From a bacterium (lineage in GTDB: Bacteria > Patescibacteriota > Minisyncoccia > Minisyncoccales > UBA10102), in assembly GCA_030698665.1 (NCBI GenBank), contig JAUYMI010000007.1, positions 1-48,775 on the forward strand: a stretch of 48,775 bases of DNA, in the 5' to 3' direction. The position numbers were made by a program, and so were the translations under genes. The notes beneath the pieces were generated by a model. It ran no database searches. It was not told the DNA's origin and saw only the letters and a program-made list of their open reading frames with translations. Shown here piece by piece: positions 37,530 to 43,216 of the stretch; the stretch's first letter is position 1; every line of letters starts with the position of its first letter.

Positions 37530-37556
37530 CCGTTGGGCAGGTTAAGAGTGGATCGC

Positions 37557-37586
37557 TTGACACTAAATACCCCGTGGGGGTATTCT
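37557..37586 (+). promoter_or_regulatory. Promoter of the csoR-cop operon
   Basis: TTGACA (37557-37562), 18 nt spacer, TATTCT (37581-37586); ATG at 37596. Confidence 0.5.
37567..37583. promoter_or_regulatory. CsoR-type operator (GC-rich inverted repeat)
   Basis: ATACCCC-GTG-GGGGTAT lies between the -35 and -10 elements. It resembles the TACCC-N-GGGGTA operators described for CsoR. Confidence 0.6.
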
Positions 37587-37595
37587 GTTGTATAT

Positions 37596-37865
37596 ATGGA
37601 TAAGAAAATAAAAAAGAGGGCAATCCGCCGCTTGAAGATTCTGGAAGGGCAGGTACGGGGACTGCAGAACATGGTTGAGAAGGAGGAATACTGCGTGGAT
37701 ATCATCACGCAGTCGCTTGCGGTCAAACAAGCCCTGTCCGGTGTTGAGGATCTTCTTTTGGAGAACCACTTGTCCACGCACGTTGCAGAGCAGATGAGAT
37801 CCGGGAAAGGTTCAAAGGCGGTGCAAGAGATTCTTTCCGTGTATAAGCTGTCCAGGAAGAAATGA
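37596..37865 (+). CDS. csoR: Copper-sensing transcriptional repressor, CsoR/RcnR (DUF156) family
   Basis: ORF 37533..37865 with ATG at 37596. RLKILEGQVRGLQNMVEKEEYCVDIITQSLAVKQAL..HL..H carries the C-H-C-type ligand positions. Confidence 0.85.
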   Translation: MDKKIKKRAIRRLKILEGQVRGLQNMVEKEEYCVDIITQSLAVKQALSGVEDLLLENHLSTHVAEQMRSGKGSKAVQEILSVYKLSRKK

Positions 37866-39976
37866 TGGAGCACCGAGAAGAGAAACGCTATACCTGTCCC
37901 ATGCATCCTGGTATCCATCAGGAGATGGCTGGTTTGTGTCCTGAGTGCGGAATGAACCTGGTGCCAGAGAAGGGTGTGTCTTTACAGCATGCGGGGCACG
38001 AAGGCGCAAAGGGATTTGAGAAGCATGAAGGCCATTCCACATCTGCCTTCAAGGCAAAGTTCTGGGTGAGTCTGACTCTTTCCGTTCCTGTCGTTCTCTA
38101 TTCTGATATCGCTCAAGAGCTTTTGCGCTTTCAGCCCCCAGCGTTTCCCGGGTCCTCGTACCTTCCTTTTGTGCTTGCCTCTGTTATCTTTTTTTACGGC
38201 GGCTGGGTATTCATTGCCTCAGCCTTCCGGGAGCTGAGGGCGAGACTGCCAGGCATGATGACGCTCATCGCTCTGGCAATATCCGTTGCCTATACCTACA
38301 GCATATACGTTGTGTTCTTTGGGGAAGGGAAGACCCTCTTTTGGGAACTTGCCACCCTGATTACCGTGATGCTGTTGGGGCATTGGATGGAGATGCGTGC
38401 GGTTTCTGGCGCCCAGAGCGCTCTCAGGGAACTCTCAAAGCTGCTGCCAGATGAGGCAGAGGTGTTTCGGGGTGGCACAACCGTCATTGTGCCTCTTGGA
38501 GAGATACGGGTTGGAGACCTGGTGCAGGTTAAGCCAGGGGGCAAGATTCCGGTAGACGGTGTGGTTCAGGAGGGTGCCTCGGACGTGGATGAGTCCGTTG
38601 CCACGGGTGAGTCCAAGCTTGTTGCAAAGAAACAGGGAGACGAGGTTATTGCAGGAACAATCAACGGAGACGGCTCGCTCAAGGTGGAGGTGAGCAAGAT
38701 AGGGGAGAATACCTTTCTGGCTGGAGTCATGCGCCTGGTTGCGGAAGCTCAGGCGTCAAAATCACGGCTCCAGATGCTGTCTGATCGGGCGGCATACTAC
38801 CTCACCATTGTTGCGGTCGTGACAGGAGGTGTCACGCTTGCTGCCTGGCTGGCGGTCGCCGATCCCCCTTTTGCCATTGAGCGTATGGTTGCCGTGCTGG
38901 TGATAGCGTGCCCGCACGCATTGGGGCTTGCCATTCCTCTGGTGGCATCCATCTCAACAACAAAGGCCGCCAAAAACGGGTTTCTTGTAAAGAGACGGCT
39001 CTCTTTGGAAGCGGCTCGCGACATTGATGTTGTCCTTTTTGACAAGACAGGAACGCTCACGAAAGGAGAGTTTGGCGTTGACTCGATTGTTTCTGCGGGC
39101 GATGAGTCAGAGGTTCTGCGGTACGCGGCTTCCGTGAATACTTACTCAGAGCACCCGATTGCGCGGGCGATCGTCAAGGAAGCTGAAAAGCGCAAGATCG
39201 CGGTACTGCCAGTGAGGAACTTCAAGCGCCTGGCAGGGAGGGGTGCTGCAGCTGAGATTGAGGGAGTGGAGGTGCTGGTTGGCAGTCCGACCCTTGTATC
39301 AGAACGCAACGTAACTCCTGACCACTTGCTGGAAACAAGGGCAGAGGAGTTTTCCCGACAAGGGAAAACAGTCATATTTGTCATACGAGGAGGCGTACTG
39401 CTAGGAGCCATTGCTTTAGCTGACGTCATTCGGGAAGAATCGCGCGAAGCCATTGATGCGCTGCACGCAATGGGCATTGCAACCGCCATGATCACGGGAG
39501 ACGGGGAGAACGTTGCTGAGTGGGTTGCAGGGGAGCTGGGGATTGATGAGTACTTCGCTAGAGTATTGCCAGAGCAGAAATCAGAGAAGGTGAAGCTGTT
39601 GCAGGCAAAAGGCCGAAAAGTGGCAATGGTGGGAGATGGCGTGAATGACGCGCCCGCTCTCACTCAAGCTGATGTGGGTATTGCCATTGGAGCTGGCACG
39701 AACGTTGCCATTGAGTCAGCCGGCATCATCCTTGTGAGAGACGATCCGCGCGATATCGCAAAGGTCATCAGGCTTTCGCGCTTGACGTATGCCAAGATGA
39801 TTCAGAATCTGTTTTGGGCGACAGGATACAATGTTGTGGCAATTCCCCTGGCGGCGGGAGTTCTGGCATTTGAAGGCATCCTTCTCCAGCCGGCAGTGGC
39901 GGCGTTATTCATGTCATTGAGTACGGTCATTGTCGCGGTAAATGCGATGCTGCTGCGAGGCCGCACATTGTCATAA
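37862..39976 (+). CDS. copB: Copper-transporting P1B-type ATPase, CPH (CopB / P1B-3-like) subtype
   Basis: TGES, DKTGTLT, SEHP and GDGVNDAP. TM motif is CPH (VIACPHALGL) rather than CPC, with MSLST in the last helix. His-rich N-terminus plus YTCPMHPGIHQEMAGLCPECGMNL. Confidence 0.9.
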   Translation: MMEHREEKRYTCPMHPGIHQEMAGLCPECGMNLVPEKGVSLQHAGHEGAKGFEKHEGHSTSAFKAKFWVSLTLSVPVVLYSDIAQELLRFQPPAFPGSSYLPFVLASVIFFYGGWVFIASAFRELRARLPGMMTLIALAISVAYTYSIYVVFFGEGKTLFWELATLITVMLLGHWMEMRAVSGAQSALRELSKLLPDEAEVFRGGTTVIVPLGEIRVGDLVQVKPGGKIPVDGVVQEGASDVDESVATGESKLVAKKQGDEVIAGTINGDGSLKVEVSKIGENTFLAGVMRLVAEAQASKSRLQMLSDRAAYYLTIVAVVTGGVTLAAWLAVADPPFAIERMVAVLVIACPHALGLAIPLVASISTTKAAKNGFLVKRRLSLEAARDIDVVLFDKTGTLTKGEFGVDSIVSAGDESEVLRYAASVNTYSEHPIARAIVKEAEKRKIAVLPVRNFKRLAGRGAAAEIEGVEVLVGSPTLVSERNVTPDHLLETRAEEFSRQGKTVIFVIRGGVLLGAIALADVIREESREAIDALHAMGIATAMITGDGENVAEWVAGELGIDEYFARVLPEQKSEKVKLLQAKGRKVAMVGDGVNDAPALTQADVGIAIGAGTNVAIESAGIILVRDDPRDIAKVIRLSRLTYAKMIQNLFWATGYNVVAIPLAAGVLAFEGILLQPAVAALFMSLSTVIVAVNAMLLRGRTLS

Positions 39977-40012: not shown

Positions 40013-40261
40013 ATGAACAAAAAATTAGACGCATTAGCAGTAGCATACGCCTCAGCAATTCTGGGGGCCGCTCTCATGCTGTTGTTGGGAATTGCCGGCA
40101 ACCTGGGAGTATATACCGGCGCCGTTGGGCAGATGAAGCAGTGGCACATGTTTTTCAGCCTGAGTGCTGGCGGGATTATCAGCGGCATGGTCGAGGCCGC
40201 CGTGATTAGTTTTGCGGTTGGATACGCTTTTGCGTGGGTGTATAATAAATTGTCTAAATAA
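40013..40261 (+). CDS. Small membrane protein, hypothetical
   Basis: 82 aa with two or three hydrophobic helices. No SD. Confidence 0.5.
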   Translation: MNKKLDALAVAYASAILGAALMLLLGIAGNLGVYTGAVGQMKQWHMFFSLSAGGIISGMVEAAVISFAVGYAFAWVYNKLSK

Positions 40262-40268
40262 CAAGAGC

Positions 40269-40715
40269 ATGAAACACGTCGTTATCGCGCTGAGTATTGC
40301 CCTTCTCGTGTTCCCGTTCGCCGCAGGAGCGCACGCGGGAGATGCCGGAGATGCCGGAACCGGCTTTGGCATGATGCGAACGGTTGAGGATAGGGCTTTG
40401 GGAGATGAGCTTCACGAAGAAATGGAAAGTCTCATGGTCAAAATGATGGCCGGTGACATGAGCGATGAGGAGGCGGGGCGCATGATTGAGCTTATGGATG
40501 AGAACCCCGGGCCCTACGGCACAATGATGGGTCGTATGATGGGTATGCAGTTTGCAGGAACCTCTACCCTCGGACAGCCTCTGGGTATGATGTCTTGGGG
40601 AGCAATGGGATCGGGCGGATTCTGGCCCTTACTTCTCCTGTTCGCGGGGATTGTATGGCTGGTCGTCGGGATTCTCGCAATCGTGTGGCTTTCAAGACAG
40701 ATTAACAAGAAGTAG
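40269..40715 (+). CDS. Met-rich secreted, membrane-anchored protein (putative Cu(I) binder)
   Basis: ORF 40212..40715 with ATG at 40269. Signal peptide ..AAGAHA/GD. Many Met clusters (MVKMMAGDM, GTMMGRMMGMQ, GMMSWGAM). C-terminal TM helix. Confidence 0.6.
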   Translation: MKHVVIALSIALLVFPFAAGAHAGDAGDAGTGFGMMRTVEDRALGDELHEEMESLMVKMMAGDMSDEEAGRMIELMDENPGPYGTMMGRMMGMQFAGTSTLGQPLGMMSWGAMGSGGFWPLLLLFAGIVWLVVGILAIVWLSRQINKK

Positions 40716-40746: not shown

Positions 40747-41247
40747 ATGAAAGAGAACAAAAACTCCTCACTCAAGCCGTTTCTTTTCCTTGCCTTTGTT
40801 CTTGTTGTCGGGGGAGCAGGGGTGCTCGCGCTCACCAGCAGAACTACCTCTCATGATGGAGAGGTGTCCGGCGAAAAGACGGAAGCTGTCGTATACCACT
40901 CTCCTACATGCGGGTGCTGCGGTGCGTACGTGAGCTATCTGGGGAGCAGCAAGTTTGCCGTGGAGCGGAAAGTCAGCGACAAACTCCTCGCTGAAATAAA
41001 GGGAGAGTTCGGAATTCCTCAAGAGATGCTTTCTTGCCACACGGCTGTGCTTGACGGCTACTTCGTGGAAGGACATGTCCCGGCAGAGGCAATCCGCAAG
41101 CTTTTAGAGGAACGTCCGAATCTCAAGGGAATCGCGTTGCCCGGAATGCCCGCTGGAGCTCCCGGTATGGGTGGAAGGAAGGTAGGTTCCTTCGTCGTGT
41201 ACGGAATCTCCCAGAGTGGAGAAACCTCCGTATTCGCTGAGCTATGA
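40747..41247 (+). CDS. copG: CopG / DUF411 family metal-binding protein
   Basis: ORF 40651..41247; start is ATG 40747 or 40723. SPTCGCCGAY, SCHT..GYFVEGHVP, ALPGMPAGAPGM match DUF411. Confidence 0.75.
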   Translation: MKENKNSSLKPFLFLAFVLVVGGAGVLALTSRTTSHDGEVSGEKTEAVVYHSPTCGCCGAYVSYLGSSKFAVERKVSDKLLAEIKGEFGIPQEMLSCHTAVLDGYFVEGHVPAEAIRKLLEERPNLKGIALPGMPAGAPGMGGRKVGSFVVYGISQSGETSVFAEL

Positions 41248-41774
41248 GAAAGCGTATTCTTATTGCGGGGTTCGCAGTGGGAATTGGAGCCGTGCCGGGA
41301 ACAGCCCTTGCGCACTGCCCGCTCTGCGTGGCTGGCGCTGGTTTTCTGGCTGTTTTTGCCGCGTCAATAGGAGTTTCTACGGCTGTAGTGGGGATTTTCA
41401 TTGGTGCCTTTTCTCTTGCCCTGGGGCTATGGATTTCTCAGATGGTCAAGAAAAAGTACGTGAAGTATCAGGATGCAATCCTTACCTTGGCTATATTCGC
41501 CTCAACGGCTGTTCCCGTCATGCCCTTCATCCGGGAGTATCGGGCGCTCTACGTTTCTCTTGGAGGAGAGTACGGAACGCTGTTCCATAATACCTATGTG
41601 ATAAATCTCTATCTCTTGGGTGTTTTCGCTGGAGCGCTTCTCCTATTCGTAGCTCCTTTGCTAAGTCAGCTATTGGCTCGCGCGCGCGAGGGTCGCTCCC
41701 TGCCATACCAGGGCTTGATCGTTACGTTCGGGCTTTTGATCGTCTCGTCGCTCGTATTCCAGATTCTCCTATGA
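41244..41774 (+). CDS. Polytopic membrane protein with an HCPLC motif, function unknown
   Basis: 176 aa; ATGA overlap with copG. LAHCPLCVAGAG at the end of the signal/TM1 segment; about 4 more TM helices. Confidence 0.6.
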   Translation: MRKRILIAGFAVGIGAVPGTALAHCPLCVAGAGFLAVFAASIGVSTAVVGIFIGAFSLALGLWISQMVKKKYVKYQDAILTLAIFASTAVPVMPFIREYRALYVSLGGEYGTLFHNTYVINLYLLGVFAGALLLFVAPLLSQLLARAREGRSLPYQGLIVTFGLLIVSSLVFQILL

Positions 41775-42211
41775 GCGAGTTGCTGGCAGTTTTCATTGGC
41801 ATCGTTTCCCTATTCGTATTTTTCCTGCTAGTGCGAGTCGTGACTGGGTGGCGTTTCTGTGCGCTTTGTGCGGGTGTTTTTGCAACCTGGGCGGCGCTCC
41901 TTATCCTTCACCGGCTGGGAATCTTCCAGGACCTCATTCTGGCAGCTCCCTTGTTGGGAGCGAGTGCTGTTGGAGTCTACTATCTTGCTGAAAAGAGAGC
42001 GTCAGAACCGCTCCATGTCTTCCGTCTGCCGTTTTTCCTTACCCTTCTTTTCATTGCCTACCTTTTACTCGGCGCCGTTCATGGTTATTTCGGGCTGATG
42101 CTGTTCCTCGCTTCCTTGTGGCTTCTCTTTGGAGCGCTTCATGTGTATGGCAGAAATCCTAAGGTGCGCACGTTGGTTAATCATCTCATCGCTTGCTGTA
42201 AGAATTGGTAA
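41771..42211 (+). CDS. Four-TM membrane protein with CxxC (FCALC) and a terminal CC motif, function unknown
   Basis: 146 aa; ATGA overlap with the upstream gene. WRFCALCAGVF in TM2; C-terminal LIACCKNW. Confidence 0.6.
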   Translation: MSELLAVFIGIVSLFVFFLLVRVVTGWRFCALCAGVFATWAALLILHRLGIFQDLILAAPLLGASAVGVYYLAEKRASEPLHVFRLPFFLTLLFIAYLLLGAVHGYFGLMLFLASLWLLFGALHVYGRNPKVRTLVNHLIACCKNW

Positions 42212-42227
42212 GTAATAATCTTTATCC

Positions 42228-43154
42228 ATGACCGAATCAAAAAACGACGAGCAGTCCTGGCAGGTTCTCGCAGTTGGTTTTTCTGTTCTTTTGGGCATGA
42301 TTCTTTTCTTTGACTTTTTCAGCATCAGCATAACTCCAAAGAGAAACATTCCGACACGGTTGACGGAGTCAGCTTCTTATTCAACGGATAGCGAGATCGG
42401 GTTGAGGGATGCGGTGTTGCCAAAAGAGGGCGTGGAGCTTCCTGTTGTTTGGGGAGACTTGGGAAAGCGGCTGATGGAATTGGGAGTGATTGATGCAGAC
42501 AAGCTGGAGAGTTTGTATGCGCAGAGAGGGGGGCTGGACGAGGAAACCCAGCGCCTGATTGGAGCAAACGATACTGGCAGCCTCGTTATCACGGAAGAAA
42601 ACGCCAATGCGCTGTTGAATCTTTTGTGGGCGTTTGGCCTGGCAAACGAGAACAGGATTTTAGCGGAAGGTCCGATGATGGATCCGCAATACGGTGGAGA
42701 TGCCGGCCGTTTCGCCTCCACAGGAGGTTGGACGCTTGCTGCAGGAAGCGTCATGGACCATTACAACAAGCATCAACTCGTTACGCTCACGGAAACGCAG
42801 CAGGAGTTAGTGGAGCTGGTTTCAAAAAACATCTATCGCCCATGTTGCGGCAACTCAACCTACTTCCCGGACTGCAATCACGGTATGGCGATGCTGGGTT
42901 TGCTTGAACTCATGGCGTCACAGGGGGTAGGGGAGCAGGAGATGTATCAGATAGCTCTCAAGGTCAATTCGTATTGGTTTCCTGATACGTATCTCACGAT
43001 TGCAACATACCTGGAACATCAGGGCATTTCGTGGCTCCAGGCAGACCCCAAACTTGTTTTGGGCGAGTCGTTCTCGAGCGCTGCTGGCTACGCTCGCATC
43101 CTATCTGAAGTGGACCCCGTGCAGTCTGGGGGCGGGGGGAGCTGCGGCGTATGA
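42228..43154 (+). CDS. Membrane-anchored extracytoplasmic protein with a PCCGNSTYFPDCNHG motif, function unknown
   Basis: 308 aa. N-terminal TM helix, soluble domain, Cys/His cluster RPCCGNSTYFPDCNHGMAM, and a C-terminal GGGGSCGV. Confidence 0.6.
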   Translation: MTESKNDEQSWQVLAVGFSVLLGMILFFDFFSISITPKRNIPTRLTESASYSTDSEIGLRDAVLPKEGVELPVVWGDLGKRLMELGVIDADKLESLYAQRGGLDEETQRLIGANDTGSLVITEENANALLNLLWAFGLANENRILAEGPMMDPQYGGDAGRFASTGGWTLAAGSVMDHYNKHQLVTLTETQQELVELVSKNIYRPCCGNSTYFPDCNHGMAMLGLLELMASQGVGEQEMYQIALKVNSYWFPDTYLTIATYLEHQGISWLQADPKLVLGESFSSAAGYARILSEVDPVQSGGGGSCGV

Positions 43155-43216
43155 TGTGATGCGTGAGGAGGGGATTAGGCGACAAAAGGGAGTATTCTTT
43201 GGTATACTGAAAAGGT

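Follow-up and report, generated by a model that had tools for sequence, protein, structure and literature searches.

A CsoR-controlled copper operon of Patescibacteria with three cysteine-motif protein families and a possible trans-membrane thiolate relay

The window analyzed here, a stretch of 48,775 nucleotides from a 572-kb assembly of the Patescibacteria (Candidate Phyla Radiation, CPR), carries directly downstream of a copG (DUF411) gene three genes for cysteine-motif proteins, which are called p1, p2, and p3 in the following. Judged from the arrangement of the genes and from the operator upstream of them, p1, p2, and p3 form the distal part of a CsoR-controlled copper-stress operon, and in related loci the link of the three families to copper genes is strong. 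When compared with the known systems discussed below, none of the three proteins is a member of the corresponding families. We tentatively favor the reading that the operon encodes a copper-induced thiolate relay across the membrane, which would carry Cu(I) rather than electrons and to which p3 would be added as acceptor. How single-membrane bacteria deal with copper beyond the cytoplasmic membrane is, to our knowledge, poorly understood, and for the CPR there is hardly any work on this question. Accessory cysteine-based modules of envelope copper homeostasis are known as a kind; the protein families involved here are undescribed, and our literature search yielded no paper on them, the work on DUF411, on DUF1573, and on copper in Patescibacteria providing context only.

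The genes of the operon lie on the + strand in the order csoR-copB-DUF5676-Met-rich-copG-p1-p2-p3, and a cupin gene follows downstream. The individual features are as follows:

37557..37586, + strand: promoter-like site TTGACA-18-TATTCT (sigma-70-like)
37566-37584, + strand: CsoR-type operator palindrome AATACCCCGTGGGGGTATT, located between the two promoter hexamers
37596..37865, + strand: CsoR-family repressor (Pfam Trns_repr_metal, E = 7.2e-24; best NCBIfam match RicR)
37862..39976, + strand: P1B-type (CopB-like) heavy-metal ATPase of the CPH type, the start of which overlaps the csoR stop by 4 nt
40013..40261, + strand: DUF5676-like protein with two transmembrane (TM) segments (Pfam DUF5676, E = 3.2e-4, under the curated cut-off)
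40269..40715, + strand: Met-rich exported protein with a C-terminal TM anchor (18 Met, signal-like N-terminus, hydrophobic C-terminal stretch)
40747..41247, + strand: membrane-anchored CopG (Pfam DUF411, PF04214, E = 9.4e-26, over the cut-off)
41244..41774, + strand: p1, open reading frame (ORF) for a polytopic membrane protein of 176 residues
41771..42211, + strand: p2, ORF for a membrane protein of 146 residues
42228..43154, + strand: p3, ORF for an N-terminally anchored protein of 308 residues
43217..43612, + strand: Cupin_2 protein (Pfam Cupin_2, E = 7e-15)

An earlier reading of this DNA (the original prediction) had placed three genes directly behind copG, the first two joined by ATGA overlaps. 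These ORFs were indeed found, and both overlaps can be read in the DNA (copG/p1 at 41244-41247, p1/p2 at 41771-41774). The gap between p2 and p3 amounts to 16 nt; the junctions from copB to p3 are tight or overlapping, and no convincing terminators were detected between these two genes. For csoR, the listed ORF begins at position 37533, but the ATG at 37596, which is located 3' of the promoter, is the likely start. A repressor, a GC-rich palindromic operator in the promoter, a P1B ATPase, and co-directional genes are thus all present, as in CsoR-regulated copper-efflux operons, and the genome of the window contains a TIGR01525 match. The copper context that had been proposed for the island (CsoR, CopB, Met-rich protein, CopG, cupin) was confirmed. 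By its sequence, the DUF411 gene upstream of p1 is a true relative of CopG: in addition to the profile match, its product aligns with the solved CopG structure (PDB 6WIS) at E = 3.8e-27 over residues 49-165, shows the CxCC motif as CGCC at residues 55-58, and carries a single N-terminal hydrophobic stretch (residues 7-33) as anchor. Boxes of the CsoR type (TACCC-N4-6-GGGTA) recur in related loci, where we counted 34 occurrences in 27 of 83 loci compared with 1.6 expected. They are often located directly upstream of these operons, as in front of copG-p1-p2-p3 (L026, L024, L071), of p3-ATPase (L047), and of c3-c7-p3 (L007, L056), c3 and c7 being two further families described below.

Related loci were sampled from both sides. 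For p3, 80 loci were taken from species-representative genomes, their ORFs were called by a simple longest-ORF heuristic and clustered, and hidden Markov models were built; 79 non-redundant loci hold p3. The sample on the p1 side consisted of four long contigs and 80 metagenome loci, and the denominators given for p1 loci are those loci in which the contig leaves room to see the neighbor. Both samples are the best-scoring 80 matches of at least 575 (p3) and at least 557 (p1), and the frequencies are estimates. Among the 79 p3 loci, 57 carry a P1B ATPase, 28 a CsoR-family gene, 44 a DUF1573 protein with a C-x-C motif, 38 the c3 family, and 19 the DUF5676 family, while two CcdA-like DsbD_TM types were found in 25 and 19 loci. 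When the count was restricted to the 47 loci in which p3 is flanked by at least 3.5 kb in either direction, an ATPase was present in 38, a Cys-motif membrane protein in 42, and an exported Cys protein in 36. The ATPase is the nearest real neighbor of p3 in 24/79 loci, and strong heavy-metal ATPase matches were obtained in 31 of the 32 genomes with p3 versus 238 of all 401 genomes evenly drawn from the phylum. In the p1-centered loci, an ATPase was seen in about 81% and CsoR in 65%. Copper-type motifs (CPC or CPH) and HMA or HMBD domains are found in the linked ATPases, and CopG, CopZ-like HMA proteins, and a multicopper oxidase occur in the same operons. Thus, the expectation that homologues would be enriched beside copper genes was borne out both for the ATPase (57/79) and for CsoR-type operators (34 boxes vs. 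1.6).

In p1, the residues A23-H24-C25-P26-L27-C28 are invariant among 27 homologues, and P18 and A21 are nearly so. The P-x-x-A-x-A pattern ahead of HCPLC reads as a putative signal-peptidase I site. Since the loops contain 10 Lys plus Arg (K+R) residues on the inside and one on the outside, with the N-terminal MRKR inside, the positive-inside rule predicts that HCPLC is located at the outer end of the first hydrophobic segment, on the outer face of the membrane. Searches with the single sequence and with the family profile did not yield any Pfam, NCBIfam, or PDB relative. A weak DUF2946 match (E = 0.048) was confined to one of the 27 members, and this assignment was rejected. We also rejected p1 as a divergent CcdA, for which the hhalign probabilities were 1.5% against DsbD_A and 0.1% against DsbD_B, two DsbD_TM families of the related loci, and no Pfam match was found; moreover, p1 has a single HCPLC and not one membrane-embedded PC cysteine per half as in CcdA/DsbD_TM. 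A relationship to the c3 family was dismissed on the same grounds (hhalign probability at most 2.6%). The family has at least 557 metagenomic copies; close p1 relatives were found in 4/401 genomes of the phylum and a broader p1-like group in 50/401, and plasmid records did not give a match.

For p2, C30, C33, C142, and C143 are invariant among 42 homologues sharing 31-47% identity. The AlphaFold model (predicted local distance difference test, pLDDT, 89.5; predicted template modeling score, pTM, 0.83) shows five membrane-length helices and an amphipathic C-terminal helix, and the four-TM topology originally assigned to this protein had to be revised. Because the K+R count over the five long helices of the model is 9 inside and 1 outside, the N-terminus is predicted to be outside, and the CxxC at the start of helix 2 as well as the CC of the C-terminal helix would face the cytoplasm. 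Of the proposal that the Cys motifs of the island face outside, the part concerning HCPLC of p1 is therefore in line with the predicted topology, but the part concerning p2 is not. No Pfam match at E <= 0.1 and no NCBIfam or PDB sequence match was obtained for p2, and a Foldseek search of the model against the PDB gave nothing below E = 5. We excluded p2 as DsbB/VKOR since none of these profiles was matched recurrently at E <= 1 in the 42 members, no fold match to the PDB was found, and CxxC is predicted to be cytoplasmic and not extracytoplasmic; in the same kind of Pfam scan, a true VKOR of the neighboring loci scores E = 1.7e-25. Membership in CcdA/DsbD_TM was rejected as well, since the cysteines are at the cytoplasmic face and not in membrane-embedded PC motifs and no Pfam match was found. 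The p2 family has 557 representatives at 50% identity and is present in 17/401 genomes of the phylum. Two C-terminal subtypes were seen, ..CCKNW as in the window and ..KMKNCC at the very C-terminus, and our impression is that the former goes with p1 and the latter with the CcdA-like DsbD_A. Fusion proteins of p1 with p2 or of p2 with p3 were not found; the long ORFs encountered are in-frame upstream extensions.

The sequence of p3 is conserved over the whole domain, with 57 positions invariant among 40 homologues. These positions include D, N, Y, W, R, and E residues, the loop FASTGGW, and C206, C207, C216, H218, M220, M222, and C306, and the central motif reads PCC-x8-C-x-H-G-M-A-M. It can be seen that [PS]CC-x8-C-x-H is present in 80/80 p3 ORFs from the species-representative loci and that a Cys stands within the last four residues, after a Gly run, in 78/80. 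In the window, this Gly-rich tail ends with C-G-V, and its last residues have a pLDDT of 48 in an AlphaFold model with an overall pLDDT of 87.8 and a pTM of 0.80. The secondary structure of the model puts the Cys cluster at a helix N-terminus. Searches with the single sequence, with the profile, and with 40 members did not give any Pfam, NCBIfam, or PDB match, Foldseek against the PDB returned nothing below E = 1, and the predicted fold appears to be new, with no relative among solved structures. We rejected p3 as a thioredoxin-fold oxidoreductase of the ScsC, DsbA, or ResA type, with no such Pfam match in 40 members, no Foldseek match, and a CC-x8-C-x-H motif. The only local structural resemblance is to the small helical bundle of the CcmH N-terminal domain (59-64 residues, target template modeling score 0.60-0.63), but the best matches (2KW0 and 2HL7; E = 3.6-7.8, probability 0.30-0.35, 59-64 columns) are not significant, cover one fifth of p3, and set CxxC against CC-x8-C-x-H, so that p3 was not classified as CcmH-type. 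Taken together, none of the three families has a Pfam or NCBIfam match or, at E values below 0.2, a PDB sequence match, and p2 and p3 also lack a Foldseek relative in the PDB; this agrees with the original prediction, which could place none of the proteins in a recognized family and which depended on conservation of the Cys motifs, found here to be invariant in the homologues of all three.

The domain of p3 is probably outside the membrane since the protein is built like the other exported proteins of these islands, with an anchor followed by a variable linker and the domain. The N-terminal tails are long and charged (median 19 residues with 6.6 charged residues; at least 20 residues in 59/120), and neither lipobox nor twin-arginine signals were found in 120 sequences. 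The family comprises more than 6,416 clusters at 90% identity, and all named matches are Patescibacteria or unclassified 'bacterium' records. With its scattered presence in 32/401 genomes (~8%) from more than 25 families, p3 is an accessory gene. Across distant CPR lineages, the identity is 55-70%, and the combination of this high identity with presence in only ~8% of the genomes suggests lateral spread of the island. Two copies of p3 occur in tandem in L013 (8001-10000) and L135 and on separate contigs in G101, G004, G328, and G335.

The original prediction had treated the three proteins as one unit, and this view did not hold. In the p1-centered loci, copG is located upstream of p1 in 54/63 cases, and p2 follows downstream in 52/64 and c7 in 7/62. 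In contrast, p3 is present in only 21/53 p1 loci (~40%) and a CcdA-like protein in 0-1 of 49, while p1 is present in only 11/79 p3 loci. Of the genomes, 6 carry both p1-like genes and p3, where chance would give ~4. Because of the low share of p1 loci with p3 and the near-chance overlap, we conclude that copG-p1-(p2 or c7) is a cassette of its own and that p3 is an add-on, which is found more often with other partners, usually DUF1573 plus a CcdA-like protein. Locus L086 shows the window order csoR-ATPase-Met-rich-copG-p1-p2 without p3, with a protein like the Met-rich one at the same position, and L087 the order copZ-copA-copG-p1-c7, followed by a multicopper oxidase. In the latter locus (L087:3474-6688), copG-p1-c7 is directly followed by a three-domain multicopper oxidase and a DsbA. 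It has been proposed in the literature that CopG serves multicopper oxidases, and the gene order of L087 fits this idea. Since copG-p1-p2 also occurs at L089:2897-4441, on a 156-kb contig with a TonB-dependent receptor, Rnf/Nqr genes, and a full-length DsbD, which by its gene content is a Gram-negative, non-CPR setting, the cassette is not restricted to CPR bacteria.

The p3 loci show three pairs of mutually exclusive, non-homologous substitutes, namely p1/CcdA-like, copG/DUF1573, and p2/c7. DsbD_A was found in 0/11 loci with p1 versus 21/68 without p1, and none of the loci with p1 contained DsbD_B or DUF1573 (p = 9.5e-5 for the latter). Conversely, p1 pairs with copG in 8/11 loci (p = 2.6e-7), and copG and DUF1573 exclude each other (p = 2.4e-4). 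The genes p2 and c7 never occur together (p2 only in 23 loci, c7 only in 12), and one or the other stands beside p1 in 11/11 loci, beside DsbD_A in 17/21, and beside DsbD_B in 2/18. An hhalign comparison of p2 with c7 gave a probability of 21% over 20 columns away from the cysteines; we consider them not homologues but analogues sharing a C-terminal CC. According to this pattern, the general plan would combine CopG or DUF1573 as the exported Cys protein with p1 or a CcdA-like protein in the membrane and with a cytoplasmic CC supplied by p2 or c7, p3 being present or absent, and the window holds the rarer version of it.

Further families were observed in these loci. c7 (L001:5126-5623, L087:4524-5021, and 15 other loci) is a cytoplasmic protein of ~165 residues with invariant H44, C85, and H89, a C-terminal D-C-C-x-E, and no Pfam match, and it always adjoins p1 or a CcdA-like protein. 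DsbD_B (L002:5115-5987 and 17 other loci) is a DsbD_TM variant of ~290 residues with invariant vicinal cysteines in FAPCC (TM1) and TSCCAP (TM4), where CcdA has one Cys per half; with four thiolates placed in the core of the membrane, this variant looks more like a permease for soft metals than like a carrier of electrons. c10 (147 residues, four TM, SCCAH) and x153 (~153 residues, exported, GGHH) form a pair (L007:10508-11403, L056:10510-11423, and ~10 other loci), which often separates p3 from the ATPase and can be regarded as a further candidate for a Cys carrier. c3 (L001:3258-3665 and 38 other loci) is a small Cys/His membrane protein of ~144 residues with the outer segment H..C-x(5-12)-C...H, a C-terminal W-L-x-L-H-E-N-S-P, and no Pfam match, and it is usually the first gene of DUF1573-CcdA-p3 operons.

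These data can be combined into the relay that we tentatively favor. Judging from the operator, copper would release the CsoR-type repressor and the whole operon would be transcribed. CopB would export Cu(I), and CopG, which is located outside the membrane, would work with p1 on the outer face; if the AxA site were cleaved, HCPLC would become the new N-terminus of p1. On the inner face, p2 would offer a four-Cys site, and CopG, p1, and p2 together would form a trans-membrane thiolate relay in the service of CopG. The Cys-Cys...Cys-x-His-Gly-Met-x-Met cluster of p3 and the mobile tail Cys could form a thiolate-rich Cu(I) site, and p3 may act as outer acceptor or sink, which accepts or hands on copper from the ATPase and the relay. 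The original prediction of a relay in the envelope was right as to the copper link, but with the p2 cysteines predicted in the cytoplasm such a relay would not be confined to the envelope but would span the membrane.

Vicinal Cys pairs are typical soft-metal ligands and poor redox disulfides. We favor Cu(I) as cargo because such a pair recurs in CopG, p2, c7, DsbD_B, c10, and p3, because Met and His flank the cysteines of p3, and because the Cys motifs of p1 and p2 are predicted to face opposite sides of the membrane without an embedded Cys in between, an arrangement that would suit hand-over of an ion better than direct thiol-disulfide exchange. CopG from P. aeruginosa is described as having a thioredoxin-like fold with a Cu4-thiolate cluster, and Cu(I) oxidation or copper delivery has been proposed as its function (PMC7558416). 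The gene adjacent to p1 in the window is a genuine copG with which p1 and p2 travel, and p3 resembles CopG in having vicinal Cys plus Met and His; however, p1, p2, and p3 are not homologous to CopG, and the CopG of the window belongs to a CPR cell with a single membrane, to which it is anchored. In the literature searched (including PMC7558416), no membrane partner of CopG is described. As a membrane-tethered surface protein beside a copB-type exporter, p3 is also comparable to CopL of the S. aureus CopB-CopL system and to B. subtilis YdhK (DUF1541). CopL is a lipoprotein with DUF1541 domains; p3 shares no homology with these proteins and differs from CopL by its TM anchor, its new fold, and its Cys-based site.

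Several observations weigh against a Cu(I) relay. The charge bias around the p3 anchor is weak (K+R 2.6 before the TM segment vs. 2.2 after it), and the ~57 invariant positions distributed over the p3 domain fit an enzyme better than a simple metal binder. For a Cu(I) relay beside an ATP-driven exporter, there is no obvious energetic rationale. The classical Cu(I) fingerprint of CsoR is C-H-C, but 22/29 of the linked CsoR-family regulators have C-H-H, with His at the third Cu(I)-ligand position, as does the csoR product of the window; the metal specificity of these regulators may differ from that of textbook CsoR. Finally, in the majority of cases p3 is partnered by a CcdA-type protein that looks canonical, each half having one PC Cys, and genes for DsbA, VKOR, thioredoxin-like, and peroxiredoxin-like proteins are enriched nearby.

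The last two observations lead to the strongest alternative, an electron (disulfide-reducing) relay in the manner of Scs/CcdA, which we consider somewhat unlikely. Here, p2 would take up reducing equivalents and p1 would pass them out, so that CopG and p3 would be kept reduced or p3 would work as a reductase or isomerase repairing copper-catalyzed disulfides in surface proteins. The established role of the CcdA family is electron transfer, and because of this role of the partner's family the redox alternative gains weight: p1 fills the exact slot of the CcdA-like protein in a mutually exclusive way, and the CcdA-like DsbD_A retains the canonical PC motifs. The CxxC motifs at helix N-termini in p1 and p2, the DsbA, VKOR, thioredoxin-like, and AhpC-like genes of the same islands, and the weak local CcmH likeness of p3 (Foldseek probability 0.30-0.35 over 59-64 residues) point in the same direction, as do the thioredoxin-like fold given for CopG (PMC7558416) and the listing of DUF1573 among selenoprotein families (PMC9312934). 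The island is also similar to ScsABCD and to CcdA/DsbD-fed reductases in that copper-linked Cys envelope proteins would be fed via a Cys membrane protein, and most p3 loci have a CcdA-like DsbD_TM partner. However, the fold of p3 is not that of thioredoxin, neither p1 nor p2 is a homologue of CcdA/DsbD (hhalign at most 1.5%), DsbB, or VKOR, and in the present system a part (p2, c7) would be cytoplasmic. The predicted opposite-face cysteines without a membrane-embedded Cys between them and the poor redox properties of vicinal CC argue against electrons as cargo, the CcmH match is not significant, and a dedicated cytoplasmic CC protein would be unnecessary given thioredoxin. Moreover, the genome of the window has a housekeeping CcdA-TrxB-DsbA locus elsewhere. 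On its contig C13 (L084:428-2630), a CcdA of 261 residues adjoins thioredoxin reductase and a DsbA-like protein, which indicates that the genome has a conventional pathway for envelope reduction outside the copper island.

A broader view of the substitution pattern, which we consider rather unlikely as a whole, is that p3 is the catalytic or terminal part of an undescribed extracytoplasmic copper detoxification system of the CPR. This system would draw on four or more non-homologous Cys carriers that can replace one another (p1+p2, CcdA-like+c7/p2, the CC-paired DsbD variant, and c10), and copG-p1-p2 would provide CopG, which has hitherto been regarded as a periplasmic protein acting alone, with a dedicated membrane partner, in which an N-terminal HCPLC generated by signal peptidase might form a His-brace/thiolate copper site.

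It appears improbable that p3 is an extracytoplasmic enzyme, for instance of a sulfur/persulfide chemistry precipitating copper or of envelope remodeling, which is merely co-regulated with copper export and for which the Cys proteins provide cofactor or reductant. The 55-70% identity over distant CPR lineages, the ~57 invariant positions, among which are D, N, Y, W, R, and E residues, and the invariant FASTGGW loop would be consistent with an enzyme. Recycling or shuttle cysteines are known in MsrA and in high-molecular-weight thioredoxin reductase, and the flexible C-terminal Cys tail of p3 recalls such cysteines of redox enzymes. However, p3 is not similar to any enzyme family or fold, its only invariant ligand-type cluster is Cys/His/Met, and the ATPase is its nearest real neighbor in 24/79 loci.

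A Mer-like response to another thiophilic stressor (Ag, Hg, Cd, reactive sulfur, electrophiles), with an outer binder, a Cys-lined transporter, and a cytoplasmic CC acceptor, is highly improbable: the C-H-H fingerprint in 22/29 linked regulators instead of C-H-C, a MerR-family gene in one distant p1-like locus, and the parallel to MerP-MerT/MerF-MerA (outer Cys binder, small membrane protein with Cys at both faces, cytoplasmic C-terminal vicinal CC as in the MerA tail) speak for it, but the linked ATPases carry CPC/CPH motifs and HMA/HMBD domains, the same operons encode CopG, a multicopper oxidase, and HMA proteins resembling CopZ, the operator belongs to the CsoR type, the gene context is one of copper and not of mercury, the Mer proteins are unrelated by sequence and by Pfam, a reductase is lacking, MerA, MerT, or MerP Pfam matches were not found, and no Mer family (MerT/MerF/MerC profiles) appeared among the Pfam matches at E <= 1 of the p1 and p2 members.

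Returning to the thiolate relay that we favor, its components are of interest beyond the window. p3 represents a very large unannotated family, which is under copper-sensor control beside a copper pump and is carried by about 1 in 12 Patescibacteria genomes. The in vivo role of CopG is still debated, and the copG-p1-p2 cassette suggests a membrane partner for this protein. From the substitution pattern, hypotheses can be derived as to which proteins share a step. With Cu(I) as cargo, the system would allow copper to cross the membrane via thiolates and thus by a route other than P-type ATPases; with electrons as cargo, it would represent a CcdA-like transducer of a new class.

The cupin gene downstream of p3 is probably peripheral and outside the conserved copper module since the cupin family was seen in only 3 related loci. 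This gene may have a promoter of its own at 43179-43208 (9/12 matches, extended TG).

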